A DNA stretch of 43,177 bases, from the NCBI GenBank assembly GCA_036339465.1, contig JAYZAY010000016.1:1-43177 (forward strand), given 5' to 3'. Of the stretch, positions 9,987 to 39,294 are shown one piece after another. The notes under the pieces are model-generated. The model was not told the origin of the DNA. It was given only the letters and a program-made list of their open reading frames with translations, and ran no database searches. How positions within the stretch are numbered: the first letter of the stretch is position 1; the number at the start of each line of letters is the position of its first letter. This DNA comes from Myxococcota bacterium (GTDB lineage: Bacteria > Myxococcota > XYA12-FULL-58-9 > JABJBS01). The position numbers and the translations under genes are program-made.

Positions 9987-10910
9987 TCACATCGCTTGCT
10001 GGAATGTCTTTCGATGGGGAGGGCGGGATTCCATATCAACATCGGTTAGGGTCAGGGGGGGGAAATGCGCCTGGGAGCGGTCCTTTAACGTCATGCAGAT
10101 ACCCATATTGGCTTCCTCAATAACAATACCCTGATTCTGCTCTAACCACTCTTTAAACGTCAATTTACTCCCATCAGAGCAGGTCACCACGTTCCTTCCA
10201 ACTACGGCCATGTGAATATAAACCCTTCCCCCCTCAGCAAGGAGGTCAATGTATTTATTCAACACCGTAGCCGGCTTTGAAGAGTAAGGCAGAATCCCAA
10301 AGACATCCACGATCATCGACATCGCTCCAAAATCCCCCTTCAGTTCGTCGTTCTCGATATCTTCGAAAAATCGCCCCGTAAAGAGGGACACACCGCGCGC
10401 ATTGATCTTCTGCTTCGCGCTCGATGTCACAAAATAAGACACAGCGCTCACTTTAGCTCCATCGTCCCCGGCCGACTTCACGTAATCCATCACCGCCACA
10501 CACTGCCCCGCCCCTGCATCGAGGAGATGGTCCTTCGGACCCAACCCCGAGACTCTTTCCCCAAACTCCGCACCAAAGATGCGGGTGTATTTCTCGATGC
10601 CGCGTCGCACCACGAAGTAGTTTTCTCGAATTGTTGCCTTGGTCGCTAACGCGGCCTGTTGCCCAAGAGAGGGCACCGGCTTGAGGTGCTCGCAACGAAA
10701 AACAGACCCTACCGGGATCCCAAAAGGGTCCTCCCGAGGCGCCCATCGTTGTCTATTAACCCTCGGGTTCCACATGTCAGGGTCTGTTAAAGAGACGGGC
10801 CTCGCCTGATTAGCCAATGCCGCACCGGTGGCCAGAGCACCAACCCCCACTCCAATCCCCACCCCACGGGGCGGGATCCGGCCAATGAAAGAAGAAAGAA
10901 AACGTTGCAT
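9987..10910 (-). CDS. Class I SAM-dependent methyltransferase with basic/hydrophobic N-terminal extension
   Basis: Motif I LLDAGAG, later MIVDVFG and LLAEGGRVYI. Start set at ATG 10910, preceded by GGAGG. Confidence 0.75.
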   Translation of the reverse strand: MQRFLSSFIGRIPPRGVGIGVGVGALATGAALANQARPVSLTDPDMWNPRVNRQRWAPREDPFGIPVGSVFRCEHLKPVPSLGQQAALATKATIRENYFVVRRGIEKYTRIFGAEFGERVSGLGPKDHLLDAGAGQCVAVMDYVKSAGDDGAKVSAVSYFVTSSAKQKINARGVSLFTGRFFEDIENDELKGDFGAMSMIVDVFGILPYSSKPATVLNKYIDLLAEGGRVYIHMAVVGRNVVTCSDGSKLTFKEWLEQNQGIVIEEANMGICMTLKDRSQAHFPPLTLTDVDMESRPPHRKTFQQAM

Positions 10911-11000
10911 AAATTGAGCCTCCCGAGAAATAACATACAAGAATGGACTTGCTCCCGCGCTCACGCCACTAAGGCCGCACGGGGATGGGCCACATCTCGG

Positions 11001-11027
11001 TTATCGGCCCCAGCAACAACACGTTGT
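11001..11027 (-). promoter_or_regulatory. Putative sigma28 promoter ACAA-N15-GCCGATAA
   Basis: Perfect -10 and correctly spaced partial -35, about 90 nt upstream of ATG 10910. Confidence 0.45.
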
Positions 11028-11624
11028 TCATAATTTACGCTCAATTGGGCCGGGCTCATCCGCCAAAATGATGGCGGAGGAGGTCAAGGGTTGCCTCCCG
11101 AGCATTTTTAAAGCGGCGTGGTCCCCCTGCTCGCCCAGATAAATACTTTGCCCCCGCAAATCCTTATGGAGCATTTTACGATTTTCGAGTCGATAAGGTC
11201 CGGATTTTACCTCCACCGGAATTGCCTACCAACGCTTGGTAATATCAGCGTTTTTTGCGAAAACCAACTTCCCAAACAAAAGTGCTCCGCCCCTCATCCA
11301 CCTCGAAGAGTCCAAACACCGTCTTACCACCCTCTATTTCACACGCACCGGCCAGTGCGTCCTTTACCACTCCATAAGACTTTCTCCCTAGAAATCAGGA
11401 TTCATCTCTACCATCATCGCAATTGAGACGGAGGTCTTTACGTTTCTTGGCCCAAACCTACGCACTTTTACGCCCTTCGAAGAGCCGTTTATCAATTCGA
11501 GAGGAATAGCCGAAAAGACCAAACCTCCCCCTCCATCGGCGGCGCCCTTCATAATCGCTATAAGCTTCCGTTTGGGGATTGTTCCAGAAATACGCAATGA
11601 TGCCGGGGATCTCCCCCCCGTTTC

Positions 11625-29413: not shown

Positions 29414-31717
29414 CTAAACCACTTCTTCCCTTTGAGCTCTGAAGGCTTCTTTAAGCGCCTCCTCTGCAACTCGTCCACTTGGGCTAGCCACGCCCGCAAG
29501 ACGTCGCTTCTCGGGCTCTGGGAGTTCCGAAACCCAGAGTTGGTAATCGAGATTGAACTGCTGGTGTTTTATCTGTTTGAGGCGTTGTAATTTTTTCATT
29601 TTATCTTTGAGGATGGCCTGCTCGCGGGCTTCTTCTGGGGAAATATAAGAAGCGGGCTCTGGATAGTAGCCGCCATTCTTCTTTAGCTGAGAGATTGCCC
29701 AGGTTTTTGGTTTATCGATGCCTTCGGAGTGCTCGGGGCTTCCGAGGTAGAAACCGAGATGAAACAAGCCGGCTTTGAACTCTTCGAAACTCAACTCACC
29801 GGATAAAACGAATTTGCGATAAAGGGGTAGTACATCACTTAGACCAATCAAAAATTCGGTGAGTCCTGCGCGGTCGAGGGTTTCTTTTAATGCCTCGTCA
29901 ATTTCACTGCCTGCTTTCTTGTTGTCTGTTGTATTATTATAAATACTACTAACTACTACGTTCTGAGGTTCCGTTTGGAGGTTCTGTATAAGCCGTCGTC
30001 GGTTTCCGTAGGAGGTTCCGGTTGAATCGTTGCGGAGGTTCCAATTAACGCTGAGGGCAAGTACCGTAGTGTTGGGATTAATGATCTGGTAGCGCTTCCC
30101 TTTTGAGTACCTTCCTCTGGATATTTCGGTTTCTCGGATGAGCTGGAGGCGTCGGAGTTTAAAGACTAGTTTTTTCGCAGTGGCGGTGGTGGTTGCGAGT
30201 TCTGCGGCGAGTTCGTTGTAGGTGATCCATCGGGTTCCCTTGGTGGGGTCGTCTGATTGTGCTTCTTGCTGAGCGATGTATAGGAGAACGACCTGTTCCT
30301 GTGGAGAGGCGGGAAAGAAATGGTCGGTGAGGTTCTGGTCAGGAGCTCTGAGAGGTTCCGCTTGGCTTAATGGAGACCTTGTGGTTGAGGTTTCGATTAG
30401 GCGGCTTTGAGGTTCCGGTTGTGAATGAGTACCTAGGACTGGGGAATTGGAACCTTGGGGGGGGGAAATGGTACCTGAGGCCTGAGGTACCATTTGTACA
30501 TGAGAACCTCGAAGTGGAGGTACGGTTTGAGGGGGGTGAGGTTCCGGTTGGATGGATGGAGGTCCCGATTGAATTGGCTGAGGTCCCCGTTGAATAATTG
30601 GAGGTCCTGATTGGATTTCGGAGGTCCCAGTGAGAGGTTCTGATTGGGAATGGGAACCTAAGGATGGAGGTCCTGATTGGATTGGCTGAGGTTCTCTTTC
30701 GGTGACTTGAGGTCCTGATGGGTAATCGGAGGTTCCTGTTTCGGGTTCCGATTGGATTTTCAACGTTCCAATAACGAGTTCAGAAGGCCGCTTTGAGGTC
30801 CCGCTTGGAGGTTCTGATGGAGGCAATGGATTAAGGAATGGTGGTGACGATAGATAGGACGTAGTGTGGAGAGAGTCCTCCTCCTGGGGGTGTAAGGGCG
30901 CACTCCGATGGTCGGATTTAAGACGTGAAGCCGCTGTGGGAGGGTGTTCTTGCTGAGGGGTCGGGTCGATTGGCTGTTCTGCTTGGTGGTGTGCTTCCGT
31001 GCTAAGAGGTTCCGATTGGCGGTGTGCTTCCGTGCTAAGAGGTTCCGATTGGTGGTGTGCCTCCGCGCTAAGAGGTTCCGGTTGAGGGTGGGAAGTTTTG
31101 TATGTCTCGCTTGGGCTGGGTTGGGAGGTTCTCAAAGGAGGTTCCCATAGAGGAATGCCGGAGGTCGCGGCGACGGGGCTCCGTACGGCCCCGGCTGTCA
31201 GGCGAGGTTCTGTATGGGTTTGCGAGGTTCTAATTGGAGGTTCTGTATGGGTTCCCGAGGTTCTTATTGGAGGTTCTGGTTGCCGTTGGCATGCTACTAT
31301 CGGCGAGTCTGATCCTATTAATGAGGTTCCAGTTCCAGGTTCCGATTGATTCTCTAATCTCGCAACTGAGAGATCTAGATGGCTATCTGAGATTCCGACC
31401 ACAACACCTGATTGAGCATCCGAAGGTGTACTTCGAGCGCCTGATTGAGGTCCTGAGGTTCCGATTGGAGGTCCCGATTGCGGATCGAAGGCCTTGGCTG
31501 CCGTCTCGGCAGGGGAGCCCAGCGGTTTAGGTTCTGAGTTAAGGGGCGACAGGTAGGATTCCTGATTTGAGTGAGTCGCTTCGGCTGCAGCTCGCTTGTC
31601 GAGAAGGGGAGGGGAGACAGGGAGCGACCTTCTTCCGTTGTTAAAGGCGGATTGTTGCCTTGTGGTTTTCCTAGGCCGCCGACGAGGGGTCGAGGCCATA
31701 TCTAAGTCCATCGCCAT
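29414..31717 (-). CDS. Putative replication initiator / DNA-binding protein: long Pro/Ser/Glu repeat region, winged HTH, helical C-terminal domain
   Basis: 767 aa, 19 nt downstream of parA. wHTH QEQVVLLYI...ITYNELAAELATTTATAKKLVFKLRRLQLI...GKRYQI, then an SSIYNNTT linker; dense DNA repeats inside the gene. Confidence 0.65.
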   Translation of the reverse strand: MAMDLDMASTPRRRPRKTTRQQSAFNNGRRSLPVSPPLLDKRAAAEATHSNQESYLSPLNSEPKPLGSPAETAAKAFDPQSGPPIGTSGPQSGARSTPSDAQSGVVVGISDSHLDLSVARLENQSEPGTGTSLIGSDSPIVACQRQPEPPIRTSGTHTEPPIRTSQTHTEPRLTAGAVRSPVAATSGIPLWEPPLRTSQPSPSETYKTSHPQPEPLSAEAHHQSEPLSTEAHRQSEPLSTEAHHQAEQPIDPTPQQEHPPTAASRLKSDHRSAPLHPQEEDSLHTTSYLSSPPFLNPLPPSEPPSGTSKRPSELVIGTLKIQSEPETGTSDYPSGPQVTEREPQPIQSGPPSLGSHSQSEPLTGTSEIQSGPPIIQRGPQPIQSGPPSIQPEPHPPQTVPPLRGSHVQMVPQASGTISPPQGSNSPVLGTHSQPEPQSRLIETSTTRSPLSQAEPLRAPDQNLTDHFFPASPQEQVVLLYIAQQEAQSDDPTKGTRWITYNELAAELATTTATAKKLVFKLRRLQLIRETEISRGRYSKGKRYQIINPNTTVLALSVNWNLRNDSTGTSYGNRRRLIQNLQTEPQNVVVSSIYNNTTDNKKAGSEIDEALKETLDRAGLTEFLIGLSDVLPLYRKFVLSGELSFEEFKAGLFHLGFYLGSPEHSEGIDKPKTWAISQLKKNGGYYPEPASYISPEEAREQAILKDKMKKLQRLKQIKHQQFNLDYQLWVSELPEPEKRRLAGVASPSGRVAEEALKEAFRAQREEVV
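29911..30041. other. Candidate intragenic replication origin: four GAGGTTC repeats plus adjacent AT-rich tract
   Basis: GAGGTTC at 29965, 29978, 30012, 30035 next to TTGTATTATTATAAATACTACTAACTACTA, between the wHTH and C-terminal domain coding regions. Confidence 0.5.
29965..31474. repeat. Array of about 33 co-oriented GAGGT(T/C)C heptamers (iteron-like)
   Basis: Hand-counted copies, e.g. 30538, 30559, 30580, 30601, 30621, 30634, 30667, 30688, 30709, 30729, 31204, 31224, 31237, 31257, 31270; recurrent spacings 13, 20-21 and 33 bp. Confidence 0.93.
30983..31081. repeat. 3 x 33-bp tandem repeat (SEPLS[T/A]EAH[H/R]Q) within the array
   Basis: TTGG(T/C)GGTGTGC(T/C)TCCG(T/C)GCTAAGAGGTTCCG(A/G) three times. 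Confidence 0.95.
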
Positions 31718-31736
31718 GGGTCATCTGTCCTCGAGT

Positions 31737-32858
31737 TTAAGCTGCCTGTGTTTTGCCTGACTTTTGGGTCTGAATTTCCATTAGCCGGTCAAAGAGCTCT
31801 ATAAATATCTCTCGTTGTTCCGAAGCCAGCTTATGCTTCGGTTTGTATTCTAGTAGTGATTGATTGGTGGCGAGGGCTTCTTCGTAGGCAACCGAGGACT
31901 TGATCGGATTGCCAATGATTTTTCCTTGGTATCGCCGATAATATTCCATGAGAATCTCGCGATTTAACTTTGCCGTCGCAGAGAATCTCGTGGGAATGAA
32001 TAATTGGTCGATGGACATTGATGCATCTCTTTCAAACGTTTCCAGGCACGTGTGGAATACCTCAAGGGATTTGAACATCGTAATGGAGCATTCGATGGGG
32101 GAGAGCAGGGTGCCCTGAAGTTCCCCGATGGCGTAAATGGCGCTTTGGTTTAATAGGTTCCAGGCTGGGGGTAGGTCCAGCAGGATGACATCCCAGTTGC
32201 CACTTTCTTTGAGGGGTCTTACAATTTTATCGGTTACAAATTTCTCACGATGAATCTTACCGAATAGCTCTTGGTCGACTATGGATAATTCTGGGCTGGC
32301 CGGGAGGATGCCTAAATGATTCCCGAGACTATAATCCATTTCAATGAGTGATGAGACGTCCAAGTCTGGATTACGCAGGAGATCCAGTAACCCCACCGCA
32401 CATTCAACCTGTGATTCGAGGTAACGGTCAAGTTGTGCAGAGCTACCCTCGGGATTGGGGAGGTCTTTGTTGGTGACGGTTTCCAGGCCCCAGAGTGAGC
32501 TGAGATCTGTTTGTTGATCGAGGTCTACGCAAACGGTTTTTAGGCCACCCCCGATCGCGAAAATTCGCGCCAGCTGATGAACGGTGGAGGTTTTGTAAAC
32601 ACCACCTTTCTGAGACCAGCATGCAATGACCAGTGGTTCCTTGAGACGTGACTTATCGAGGAAGCCGTGGCCTGCTTCGGCTATTTCAGGTAGTTGTGGG
32701 GTTTTCCAAACGCGCGTTGGTTGCTTGGAAACACCGCGATGTACGCGATCAGCTTTTGGGAACCTATTGGTTTCCGACTCTTCTGCCCTAAGAATGGTCT
32801 GTTTGGTTGATTCGAAATGAAATATGGCTTCTAAGTCTCGATAGAGAAAATCTCGCAT
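31737..32858 (-). CDS. parA: ParA-family partition ATPase with N-terminal (type Ia-like) extension
   Basis: Deviant Walker A QKGGVYKTS, A' VDLDQQ, ILPAS, Walker B VILLDLPP; about 75-aa N-terminal extension; AGGAGG RBS. Confidence 0.93.
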   Translation of the reverse strand: MRDFLYRDLEAIFHFESTKQTILRAEESETNRFPKADRVHRGVSKQPTRVWKTPQLPEIAEAGHGFLDKSRLKEPLVIACWSQKGGVYKTSTVHQLARIFAIGGGLKTVCVDLDQQTDLSSLWGLETVTNKDLPNPEGSSAQLDRYLESQVECAVGLLDLLRNPDLDVSSLIEMDYSLGNHLGILPASPELSIVDQELFGKIHREKFVTDKIVRPLKESGNWDVILLDLPPAWNLLNQSAIYAIGELQGTLLSPIECSITMFKSLEVFHTCLETFERDASMSIDQLFIPTRFSATAKLNREILMEYYRRYQGKIIGNPIKSSVAYEEALATNQSLLEYKPKHKLASEQREIFIELFDRLMEIQTQKSGKTQAA

Positions 32859-34890: not shown

Positions 34891-35797
34891 TCCTGCTTAA
34901 GGGGCGAGTCTTCGTTTCTGTGCGCCAGCGCCAGGCATATTTTTGTGCACTGATATTTATGGGAGTGAGCAGGGCTTGGGTTGCAACAAAAAGCGGATGG
35001 TTTGGCACCGGTTAATGCATTGTGCGTATGAGATTGAGGTGCTCAAACGGCCCAAATGCAAGGGTGGCATGACCAACATGTCGTTTGTTATCTTGTAGAC
35101 AGTGGCCCGTGAATATTCTCAAGTATCATGGACTTGTTGGGGACTGACGGAAACGAAGGCCTTCGAGATTTAATTAAATGGATTTTGAGTATGTGTGGGG
35201 CTGCTTAGAGACAGGGTCAAGGATTGGTTTGTTCTTTTGCAGGGTGAACTGTTCAGCGGACGATTTTTTACGGTTTGCAGATTGGGAAGCTTCTTGCGGG
35301 TGGATATACGCGAATAATGTGATTGGTTTGATGGAGGTGGTGCGTTCTCAAATAATGATTCTCAGCGAATCTATTGGTGGTTGCGGCTTCCAAGTGATGG
35401 TTTTTATCTCGTGGGTTGTCTGTGGACCTTTTTGGTTTAACCCGATGTTTTTTTGTTTTTGGTGCTTTTCTTTAAGTGACGGAGCCTAGCTATTTGGGAA
35501 TGTGAGGATTTCCAAGGATGTCGTCAGTTTGTGTATGTTGGAGGTCCTGTGGGTTGGGGAAAGTGGGCCTTATAGAGTGTGGAGACCGGTCAAACTGAAT
35601 TCCTAGAGCATAAATTAAACAAAACCTGGCCTCGACTATTCCACTGACCCCCGGCTTTTGAATAAAATAACAGGAGCGATTGCGCGGTGGAACCGATACG
35701 CATGGGGTGGGCCTTTCTATGCTTTCGGGTCTTGTAGGAGGTCCTTGGTTATCAAGGACTTAACACATAGAATGATGAGGCTATTGTAGCGTGAACA

Positions 35798-38016: not shown

Positions 38017-39294
38017 ATGGGAACTCTCTATCTCCTAAGTGCATGTTTATTGTTGGGGAGCCCGACTCCCGATAAAACCCTGATTATCAAGATCGGGGAT
38101 ACCATCGACGCGAACTTGGAAAAAGGGCTTCAATCTTTCCAGCAAGAGCGGGTGGAGTTTGTTTATTTACCTATTCGCGAATTGTTAGAGCAAGAGATGG
38201 GGTTTGCCTTTGATGAAAAGGTAACCGATGCGAGTCTAAAAAAATTATTTGATGATGCCCGAAACCTAGAGCAAACAACTTTCGGCAAAGAAAAGGAAAT
38301 CCAGGCCCTTCGCGAGCAAATTATTGAGGGTTACCAGAGAATTTTATGGCCATCCAGGGATAGTTTTCGGGTTATTGCTTCCACGAGTCTTGATATAGCA
38401 GCAGCTACCTTCAGCGAAGGGAAGGAAGAGTTCGCTTCGCGATTGGCTCTGCAGGCTCTCATTGATTTTGATGATCCTAAAATTGATCGGGATTATTACA
38501 ACCCCTCGGTTCAGGAATTATTTTCCGATGTCAGAAATCAACTCACGGATCGGAAACGTTCCACCGTTGAGGTGATGTCGCCTAGCCCAGGGCGGGTCTT
38601 TTATATGGGGCAGGAAATCGGCTCTGTGAATGCGGCCATCGCTATGCCCCAGGGAAAACACCGCGTGTGGTCAGCTCTTAATGAAAAACGGTCCTTGCCC
38701 CGATTGATTAAAGTACAAGATGGTCTGAAGATGGTGAATCTCGATGCGGATTTAGAGTGCCGAATTCTACTTGGGGAGAAGGTGTCTTTTCAATGTGAGG
38801 ATAATTGTCCCAAGTATCTCAGTGCTCTAGGTTCCTGGTTGAAGGTGGACCGGGTGGTGGGTATTGCGTCAATTGGCGATTCTTCAAGTTTTACGGTGTT
38901 TCAAGTGGAGATTAAGAATAATCGCTTTACCAAGTACACCTATCTACCAGGGACCCGCTATGAGGTGCTTTCGGACCCTTGGTATAAAGTGCCCATGAAT
39001 TACTCGCCCTTTGGGTTGGCTCAATTGAATCAAGGGAGAGTATTGCCAGCGGTGGCGGTGGCGCTATTGCAAGTGGGGACACTCGGGTGGCATTTACAAG
39101 CGGTTTCGTCCCATCAGTCTGCCCTTGAGGATAGGACTCTAACCCAAAGCGACCGAGAGGGGGCCCTGGCCATGCGCAATGTTTCAGCGGGACTTTTTTA
39201 TACGGCGATTTTGGCGGGGGTTGCCGAAGCGCTTATCGTTGATTGGTTGGATGATTCGGAGCCCGTTGAAGATTCGACGATTTTTCCGTGGTAG
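38017..39294 (+). CDS. Hypothetical exported protein with C-terminal hydrophobic segments, probable partner of the kinase
   Basis: About 425 aa, signal peptide-like N-terminus, PEGA-like centre (GRVFYMGQEIG...PQGKHRVW), C-terminal PFGLAQ followed by TM segments. Confidence 0.75.
   Translation: MGTLYLLSACLLLGSPTPDKTLIIKIGDTIDANLEKGLQSFQQERVEFVYLPIRELLEQEMGFAFDEKVTDASLKKLFDDARNLEQTTFGKEKEIQALREQIIEGYQRILWPSRDSFRVIASTSLDIAAATFSEGKEEFASRLALQALIDFDDPKIDRDYYNPSVQELFSDVRNQLTDRKRSTVEVMSPSPGRVFYMGQEIGSVNAAIAMPQGKHRVWSALNEKRSLPRLIKVQDGLKMVNLDADLECRILLGEKVSFQCEDNCPKYLSALGSWLKVDRVVGIASIGDSSSFTVFQVEIKNNRFTKYTYLPGTRYEVLSDPWYKVPMNYSPFGLAQLNQGRVLPAVAVALLQVGTLGWHLQAVSSHQSALEDRTLTQSDREGALAMRNVSAGLFYTAILAGVAEALIVDWLDDSEPVEDSTIFPW

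Follow-up and report, generated by a model that had tools for sequence, protein, structure and literature searches.

What is a parA gene for when the gene behind it encodes no recognizable ParB and carries, inside its own coding sequence, tens of copies of a short direct repeat? This question is raised by a two-gene cassette in a 43,177-bp stretch of DNA (here called the window), which is the entire contig C16 of a draft genome assigned to the Myxococcota (G000; 102 contigs, 4.17 Mb, 92.8% complete). Positions are numbered along the window, both cassette genes lie on the minus strand, the protein encoded by the second gene is named X, and the whole analysis was computational. The answer that we favor, and to which we assign a probability of about one-half, is that the cassette holds an origin inside an initiator gene, in the style of phage lambda O. 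X would then be an initiator and also the adaptor of ParA, and the repeat array would be origin and partition site at once.

The cassette itself was first described in an earlier note, made from the sequence alone, as an operon of two genes, 19 nucleotides (nt) apart, encoding ParA and a 767-amino-acid (aa) protein. The coordinates of the open reading frames (ORFs) and the Pfam matches of the upstream product (AAA_31, 2.9e-17; CbiA, 1.6e-10) agree with that description (Table 1). Judged by its sequence, the upstream gene encodes a ParA/MinD-type ATPase with the deviant Walker A motif KGGxxK[ST], which is present as KGGxxKT and is invariant (K84, G85, G86, K89, and T90) across five aligned ParAs. 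Matches to the NCBIfam models of the RepA and SopA partition ATPases were weak, all of them falling far under the cutoffs.

The word G[AG]ACCTC occurs 33 times on the coding strand of the X ORF, which is the number of in-ORF DNA repeats that the earlier note had estimated, and only six times on the same strand in the rest of the contig; the opposite strand holds four copies in all 43,177 bp, one of them within the X gene. Tandem Repeats Finder reported periods of 13, 21, 33, 42, and 108 between 30431 and 31480. The 33 copies are distributed over frames 0, 1, and 2 (21, 9, and 3 copies, read as E/G-P, G/R-T-S, and N-L, respectively), and where a 13-nt unit is repeated at a 13-nt distance, the peptide QSGPPIGTS results, i.e., a single DNA word read in two frames. 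With the protein held fixed, synonymous resampling according to genome codon usage (2,000 draws) yielded 3.65 ± 1.76 copies (maximum, 11), and shuffling of the gene's own codons yielded 8.66 ± 2.34 copies (maximum, 17). Since 33 copies, in three frames, were observed against these expectations, the repeats in the X gene are DNA-level sites and not peptide repeats. Separately, one contig from metagenome run X1 (depth, 9.8) jumps back from 31252 to 31204 with 17 letters in between; this indicates an extra unit in the 33-nt repeat block, so that copy number may differ among populations.

The same genome contains a paralogous cassette on contig C3 (ParA of 351 aa, gap of 2 nt, X of 1003 aa), the X protein of which is 34% identical to the C16 protein in its C-terminal part (E value, 7e-32) and has a different repeat motif. 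Further members for which DNA was available came from two other genomes, G005 (L005/L018) and G122 (L003), and from five metagenome contigs (L010 to L014). In L010, L011, L013, and L018, the respective motifs (9- to 10-mers, 11 to 17 per gene) occur in all three frames and not once in several kilobases of flanking DNA, and synonymous shuffling of the genes' own codons gave only 1.2 to 4.3 copies. The spacing is 10/11 and 21 to 23 bp in L013 and L018, and in a homologue on plasmid pQT6929, discussed below, 10 copies of GTGGGAACAA are spaced alternately by 23 and 22 bp. These distances come to approximately one or two turns of the helix without being divisible by 3, so that the reading frame rotates from copy to copy. 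An AACCG core is common between lineages, with the 3' half of the motif varying. Lineage-specific arrays, for the most part with a spacing of 10 to 11 or 22 to 23 bp, were found in seven of eight complete genes. Their layout is conserved, with arrays on both sides of the winged-helix coding region. Helically phased direct repeats with an adjoining A/T-rich region are the makings of an iteron origin, and X is the predicted initiator that would bind them.

That A/T-rich region is a palindrome with the core GTTAGTAGTAGT-N6-9-ACTACTAC, read as VVSSS..TTTT; the peptide VVSSS..NTTTT is encoded by GTAGTTAGTAGTAGT, an A/T-only spacer of 6 to 9 nt, and ACTACTACNAC. In the window, the element has a GC content of 0.225, which makes it the lowest 40-nt window of the cassette and the sole such window within 5 kb on either side, and the pattern occurs once in the window. 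The palindrome is kept as DNA in all eight close relatives despite a protein identity of about 30%, and its codons are skewed accordingly: serine is encoded by AGT in 26 of 34 cases (genome AGT usage, 18%), all 14 valine codons are GTA or GTT, and of the 39 threonine codons, 34 are ACA or ACT. The peptide VVSSS..TTTT, in other words, exists because of the DNA palindrome. In seven of eight genes the lowest-GC 40-nt window of the entire gene is this element, and a DNA hairpin of -4.9 to -9.6 kcal/mol was predicted in the seven genes other than that of the window. Moreover, the final repeat starts 18 to 33 nt before the element in all five genes mapped, with two to four repeat copies located just upstream of it in C16, C3, L010, L013, and L018. 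Since the paralogues on C16 and C3 differ in repeat motif and have the A/T-rich element in common, this arrangement fits iterons that confer specificity and a palindrome that serves as a generic melting site.

The palindrome also brings the DnaA-trio to mind, the consensus of which requires 5'-TAG-3' (3'-GAT-5') to be repeated three or more times within approximately 16 bp of a DnaA box (PMC8287927). Runs of two to five TAG triplets are present on both strands of the palindrome, and TAG/CTA runs of three or more are very rare, numbering two in the 4.17-Mb genome, one of which lies inside the C3 X gene. The palindrome arms match the consensus, although they have no adjoining DnaA box and their orientation misfits the box-to-trio order; the host DnaA-box cluster near dnaA, on contig C30, has no TAG run of three or more. 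A DnaA-trio mechanism at the palindrome is thus speculative and of low probability.

Is the repeat-filled part of the gene translated at all? The N-terminal 1392 nt contain no stop codon in the X frame versus 13 to 31 in the five other frames, and the corresponding frame is stop-free in six of six family genes (1 to 63 stops in the other frames), indicating that the repeat region is nevertheless translated. X begins with a basic peptide, MAMDLDMASTPRRRPRK..., followed by about 440 repeat-encoded residues, and in every relative read the start is hydrophobic, then acidic or hydrophobic, and then a cluster of K/R. By analogy with the N-terminal peptides of ParB and of ParT, as the latter are described in PMC12260392, this peptide would act on ParA; a complex prediction with two ParA chains, two ATP molecules, and X residues 1 to 60 scored 0.00, which speaks neither for nor against binding. 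In the public protein collection, the gene is represented by positions 29414 to 30493 alone, a product of 359 aa translated from an internal start. This automatic gene call cuts off the repeat-encoded N terminus and hides the coupling to parA, and since gene callers truncate X in this manner, such cassettes are easily missed.

An AlphaFold2 model of X aa 465 to 767 (34-row alignment; predicted local distance difference test [pLDDT] score, 86) consists of a winged helix, a disordered linker, and a helical C-domain. The winged helix, already proposed in the earlier note, was borne out by its modeled similarity to MarR/ArsR/SmtB proteins (Z scores of 9 to 10.3) and to the Cdc6/Orc winged helix (Z scores of 8.5 to 8.6). 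The sole NCBIfam trace in X is an Orc1/Cdc6 C-terminal winged helix (E value, 0.05; aa 470 to 544), and a sequence search of the PDB returned generic MarR-type helix-turn-helix (HTH) matches only (best E value, 0.0077). X itself has no Pfam family at an E value of ≤1. Neither X (Pfam and NCBIfam) nor, at the thresholds applied, any member of the sets of 53 and 34 relatives scanned matched Rep_3, RepC (RP-C), RctB, DnaA, RepA_N, or RPA, in line with the earlier note, which could not assign X to any of the first four. Likewise, neither PF02195 nor any other ParB family was found in X by Pfam or NCBIfam, i.e., it does not show the N-domain plus HTH of a ParB.

Kinship with initiators was detected among the relatives. 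A scan of 34 of them against PHROG families gave 10 member-family matches of initiator type (best values, 4.6e-6 to 8e-6) versus one transcriptional regulator. These comprised "replication initiation O-like" families (phrog_678, 391, and 345, with three, one, and one member matches; none for the window protein), "replication initiation protein" (two, one, and one), and "DnaD-like helicase loader" (one). Four single-member matches to tail-fiber families (two tail fiber and two tail) were attributed to the repeats. The nearest clusters of a protein language model atlas (Atlas; score, 0.96) contain HTH_36 proteins of about 320 aa, phage ones included, and a cluster with RP-C N-terminal domains followed at a score of 0.95 (RP-C being present in 19% of its members, the only trace of the six profile families named above). 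We treat both the Atlas neighbors and the PHROG matches as leads, not as membership.

The C-domain is more elusive. Pfam matched nothing in this domain in 53 family members, winged-helix families being the only matches, and comparison with PDB folds gave none that was convincing (best Foldseek E value, 1.4; best VIA-align Z score, 5.9). The top VIA-align scores, for the lid of Hda (5.9), the lid of DnaA domain III (5.1), and DnaD (5.0), are in the chance range of helical bundles, and therefore no fold was assigned.

The X family is rare and patchy. HMMER with aa 465 to 767 against 1.84 billion representative proteins found 83 matches at an E value of ≤1e-3, 47 of them at ≤1e-10; within the phylum, 5 of 401 genomes matched (G000 included), and within the same taxonomic family, 0 of 5. 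A homologue search of the protein collection returned only the window's 359-aa gene call and P0001, and a pattern search gave 46 matches in genome contigs, none of which was confirmed, and 5 loci in metagenome contigs. A full-text literature search found no published description of the family. All of the full-length members that were read have in common a basic peptide at the N terminus, short repeats that differ by lineage and stand on both sides of the winged helix, the peptide VVSSS..NTTTT, and the conserved C-domain, in which the motifs SLEHLAFYL, PKAW..QL, and GYYPxPAGF recur.

In all eight loci with upstream DNA (C16, C3, L018, L010, L011, L013, and two plasmids, Cardinium p_A and pQT6929), parA lies directly upstream of X, with ParA confirmed by Pfam; L003, L012, and L014 begin inside X and are uninformative in this respect. 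The junctions in relatives are tight (gaps of 2, 10, 12, and 12 nt in some, and genes overlapping by 1 and 14 nt in others), and beyond parA and X no third gene is conserved among the loci. Homologues unlinked to parA and free of internal repeats would have spoken against the idea of a replicon module put forward in the earlier note; the linkage in eight of eight loci, together with the lineage-specific arrays in most complete genes, is in its favor. The neighborhoods in other loci are of a mobile or replicative kind: L018 has a type IV coupling protein along with a tyrosine recombinase, L010 has a coupling protein of the VirD4 type and a ResIII helicase, and L013 has dnaN directly upstream.

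With full-length X as the query, tblastn gave no match in the plasmid database PLSDB, and the phage collection likewise gave none. The C-terminal 303 aa yielded two weak plasmid matches in PLSDB at an E value of ≤0.1, which were then confirmed by hhalign. The first is the protein encoded after parA on the complete, circular, 33.8-kb Cardinium plasmid p_A (hhalign probability, 99.1%; E value, 1.9e-18). The second is an unannotated 492-aa homologue on pQT6929 (GenBank accession number NZ_CP103984.1), a complete, circular, conjugative 76.8-kb plasmid of Cysteiniphilum (97.8%; 6.8e-13). Its ORF spans the start of the record, with coordinate 1 inside its 10-copy array, and the gene is absent from the PLSDB feature table. 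The operon on pQT6929 reads parA-X-orf71-P-loop NTPase-DUF2786-dnaB, and neither a Rep nor a ParB is among the 68 features listed for this plasmid in the PLSDB table, which is incomplete by its own description.

Within the source genome, the GC skew is strong (about 0.1 to 0.2), and dnaA, a DnaA-box cluster, and parB are located together on contig C30, which also provides the genome's single ParB_N match. Of the 74 contigs that measure 16 kb or more, only C16 and C23 showed a sign switch whose arms are 6 kb or longer, and both switches are of the origin type (negative to positive). On C16, the skew is negative from 1 to 30 kb and positive from about 30 to 35 kb onward, which places the switch at the cassette. 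The polarity with respect to the genes is the same on C3, where the skew minimum lies a few kilobases past X, near the contig end. The GC skew of the Cardinium plasmid was noisy, and the skews of the plasmids were not used as evidence.

In line with the earlier note, Pfam found no integrase, phage, or conjugation family in the window's 24 larger ORFs (those of at least 120 aa). The same search found no parB there, so that claim holds for the neighboring genes, with the qualification that X itself is the only candidate for the DNA-bound partner of ParA. No second initiator candidate was found within 5 kb of the cassette, and its flanks contain no tRNA, Rfam family, or notable repeats. The locus recurs at ≥99% identity in marine metagenome contigs from four studies.

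Taken as a working model, these observations suggest the following. The winged helix of X would bind the direct repeats in its own gene, with 29 copies upstream of the part that codes for the winged helix and 4 downstream of it; the duplex would open at the conserved A/T-rich palindrome, which is abutted by the downstream copies; and the helical C-domain would recruit host replication proteins. The X-coated array would double as the partition complex, with the basic N-terminal peptide, on its long repeat-encoded disordered tether, contacting and stimulating the ParA encoded upstream. We infer the binding of X to the repeats, initiation at that place, and the action of the peptide on ParA. The adaptor role is argued for by the constant parA-X operon, by the basic peptide on a translated tether, and by the lack of any other partner. 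As for the replication-partition cassette originally envisaged, linkage, repeats, two plasmid homologues, and the position of the skew switch all support it; its replication half is the more conditional one, given that ParT provides a partition-only precedent.

Several observations weigh against the proposed in-gene origin. The window protein matches no PHROG (1e-3), Pfam, or NCBIfam initiator family, and its C-domain resembles no helicase loader or solved fold. The window copy of the palindrome has a degenerate right arm, with a predicted hairpin of only -2.9 kcal/mol, and matches to the DnaA box (TTATCCACA, ≤1 mismatch), an element that is frequent though not universal in iteron origins, number 13 in the window versus 9.4 expected, with no cluster in or near the cassette. 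The Cardinium gene has no in-gene repeats, and the toprim and VirE-like genes that are also found on its plasmid could account for the replication of that plasmid. With regard to skew, the second switch (C23) has no such cassette, the switch on C16 could also have been caused by a rearrangement, and the skew minimum of pQT6929 coincides with X but tracks gene orientation and is not independent evidence. As to the separate replicon that the earlier note had in mind, dnaA is on another contig; C16 has no terminal overlap and is not closed, and its flanks look chromosomal. In the 102-contig draft, C16 may be a chromid, a megaplasmid, part of the chromosome, an integrated element, or the product of a rearrangement. 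Finally, by analogy with ParT, a partition site inside a gene of this anatomy can exist without origin function.

An extension of the favored reading, which we offer more tentatively, combines one protein as initiator and ParA adaptor and one array as origin and centromere with the presence of two cassettes of different specificity. Each would be a minimal replicon of two genes, its cis sites being read in all three frames into the flexible tether of their own binding protein. In addition to the chromosome with dnaA, the host, an uncultured, marine, predator-like bacterium, would then possibly have two further replicons (chromids or megaplasmids). Plasmids are described as extremely rare in Myxococcota (PMC11705834). 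The public labels of the host's relatives vary between Bdellovibrionales and Myxococcota, and the closest match of the host DnaA (76% identity) is labeled "uncultured Bdellovibrionales."

The strongest competitor is partition alone, with X as a ParB analogue, the in-gene array as its centromere, and replication starting elsewhere or by other proteins. Such a role would suit the tight parA-then-X order in all eight loci, the basic N-terminal peptide on its long disordered tether, and the lack of any other centromere-binding candidate, and arrays of adjacent sites are a known means to concentrate a centromere-binding protein. ParT/parS of SCP2 offers a precedent (PMC12260392), the Cardinium plasmid has separate replication candidates in its toprim and VirE-like genes, and since partition loci often adjoin origins, the skew switch does not decide between the two. 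We nevertheless consider it less likely that partition is the only function, since this would leave unexplained why a conserved A/T-rich palindrome, common to both paralogues, abuts the last repeats, why the winged helix has kin among phage O-like and DnaD-like initiators, and why the pQT6929 operon, with no annotated Rep, runs into dnaB (likewise, the dnaN neighbor in L013). In addition, X has no ParB N-domain, and the skew switch of C16 would be left without a nearby initiator candidate or DnaA-box cluster.

Conversely, X might be an initiator with an in-gene origin and nothing else, ParA using some other, unrecognized partner or merely regulating X. All of the origin-type evidence for the favored reading applies here as well, but none of the loci has another conserved gene alongside parA, and neither an N-terminal frame that is open in six of six genes nor a conserved basic start is needed for an initiator alone, which makes this proposal improbable.

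Most improbable, in our view, is that the repeats have no function in cis and that X is a winged-helix regulator of the ordinary kind, its N terminus being of low complexity and prone to slippage: while the 21- and 33-nt units of the window are multiples of 3, one metagenome contig has an extra 33-nt unit, and the Cardinium homologue lacks repeats, neutral tandem repeats would not account for cores in three frames at about four- to ninefold the number that the protein requires, for a spacing of 22 to 23 bp in relatives (not a multiple of 3), for copies that follow the winged helix and keep a conserved distance to a palindrome that is itself conserved, for a motif that differs by lineage with its AACCG core retained, or for constant parA linkage in a family found on plasmids.

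How does the proposed dual-function cassette compare with known systems? Lambda O is a winged-helix initiator in whose gene iterons and an A/T-rich region encode a tolerant linker and whose C-terminal domain recruits the helicase system. Ori-lambda lies within gene O (PMC6022878), and the X gene resembles it in its in-gene repeats and adjoining A/T-rich element. However, lambda O has 4 sites, whereas the X gene has 33, located on both sides of the winged-helix coding part; X has no O-family match, the fold of its C-domain is unmatched, and no P-like loader gene is present. X is, furthermore, cotranscribed with parA, has a basic N-terminal tail, and occurs in a plasmid- or chromosome-like rather than a phage context.

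RepA_N plasmids have their origin inside the coding sequence of rep and partition genes next to it. The RepA_N initiators (pSK41, pTZ2162, and pAD1, as well as PLE RepA) combine N-terminal winged-helix/DnaD-like iteron binding with a lineage-specific C-domain (PMC7145576). X is similar in having a winged-helix/DnaD-like DNA-binding domain and a C-domain with an unknown partner, yet neither X nor 53 relatives matched PF06970, and there are differences both in domain order and in the C-domain. Those repeats that the X gene carries are simple direct 7- to 13-mers, whereas RepA_N iterons are semipalindromic (PMC7145576).

The repABC operon also unites a partition ATPase and an initiator, and the ParA of the cassette weakly matches NCBIfam RepA. 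Its origin is inside repC. RepA corresponds to ParA, RepB to ParB, and RepC to the initiator (PMC4492784); the cassette, in contrast, has two genes only, without RepB/ParB, and X is not RP-C by Pfam. Unlike repABC, X appears to combine a ParB-type N-terminal tail with an initiator.

For ParT of SCP2 (Streptomyces), a basic ParA-activating N-terminal peptide and a parS inside parT are reported on experimental grounds (PMC12260392). Its middle domain is a ParB-type HTH, and the sliding clamp that it forms has one 18-bp inverted repeat as its loading site, whereas X has a winged helix resembling that of MarR and Orc, a C-domain of unrelated type, and, in its gene, tens of direct repeats along with an A/T-rich palindrome. 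With ParA adaptors in general (ParB, ParG, ParT, and McdB), X shares a basic disordered N terminus, a gene position after parA, and a modeled winged helix, a likeness of anatomy only. Lastly, Wolbachia pWCP has a gene resembling parA upstream of 16-nt tandem repeats predicted to be oriV, with no rep found (PMC13734603). It resembles the cassette in having parA followed by an iteron-like array without a recognized Rep, but no homology was detected: the tblastn search of PLSDB with X gave only the Cysteiniphilum and Cardinium plasmids.

If the proposed reading is correct, the cassette would represent a replicon family present in no curated library, with a C-domain for which neither Pfam nor NCBIfam nor the PDB offers a counterpart. 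It would also put a name to "hypothetical" genes beside parA on plasmids without a recognizable Rep, such as pQT6929 and the Cardinium plasmid. The gene would be an extreme case of dual coding, with tens of putative protein-binding sites and a candidate melting element running through an ORF at a period of 22 to 23 bp. Should X indeed be bifunctional, the two genes would make a compact candidate vector backbone for groups with few genetic tools, as well as a clean system in which to study the coupling of initiation and partition.

Table 1. Features of the parA-X cassette in the window and repeat motifs in the X genes of relatives
Feature	Position	Strand	Description	Forward copies	Reverse copies
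parA	31737..32858	-	ORF, 373 aa; predicted ParA/MinD-type ATPase with N-terminal extension of about 75 aa, type Ia-like		
parA-X junction	31718..31736	-	19-nt gap, operon junction		
Gene X	29414..31717	-	767 aa: basic N-terminal peptide, repeat-encoded disordered region, winged helix, linker, helical C-domain		
X basic N-terminal peptide	31643..31717	-	Codons 1-25 (MAMDLDMASTPRRRPRKTTRQQ...); candidate ParA-contacting tail		
Repeat array A	30329..31474	-	29 direct G[AG]ACCTC, extended consensus about CAAYCRGRACCTC; 21- and 33-bp units, pairs 13 bp apart		
Winged-helix domain	30029..30304	-	aa 472-563; AlphaFold2 model m96e12e5ea192, residues 8-99, pLDDT >90		
Repeat cluster B	29965..30041	-	4 direct cores, from winged helix to A/T-rich element; frames read NL, GTS, NL, EP		
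A/T-rich element	29915..29959	-	GTAGTAGTTAGTAGTA-TTTATAATAA-TACAACAGAC, translated VVVSSIYNNTTD; candidate DNA-unwinding element		
X C-domain	29417..29920	-	aa 600-767; model m7adde2d7f7ef, 53 rows, pLDDT 96.2; conserved, helical		
L010 repeats			Motif ACCGGGCAC	13	3
L011 repeats			Motif ACCGGGCAC	11	3
L013 repeats			Motif AACCG[GT]AGAC	17	6
L018 repeats			Motif ACCGGGGAC	12	7
C3 repeats			Motif AACCG[AG]T[CT]	17	1

Upstream of the cassette, contigs from metagenome runs X2, X5, and X7 diverge from the window at both borders of the stretch from 34961 to 35193, and an X1 contig diverges at 34982 and 35015, which suggests an insertion or replacement of about 230 bp that is polymorphic among marine samples. 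Inverted-repeat arms are found at 34910 to 34921 and 35147 to 35158. Farther along, TGT(T/A)GGAGGTCCT, in which the repeat core and flanks are found as their reverse complement, occurs twice (35536 to 35548 and 35733 to 35745, 197 bp apart); this pair is located 2.7 kb upstream of parA, just before a Ser/Thr kinase gene.

On C23, the skew switch (at about 9.7 to 11.7 kb; L017) lies beside a 383-aa ORF (10054 to 11205, minus strand) without a Pfam family, the N terminus of which is encoded by GGCACTCAA(CAC) repeats in three frames. A possibly HUH-like motif resembling HFHLMM is the only ground for a tentative reading of this ORF as an HUH-type protein. Upstream of it, 500 bp are densely filled with CATTTATTCC and CCAATAACCACGCTGCT repeats. 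On C3, a hexanucleotide repeat of the (GCTGTC/GACAGC)n type, located a few kilobases downstream of the paralogous cassette, gives rise to ORFs that overlap on opposite strands (38149 to 38893) and encode AVS and DTA peptide repeats.

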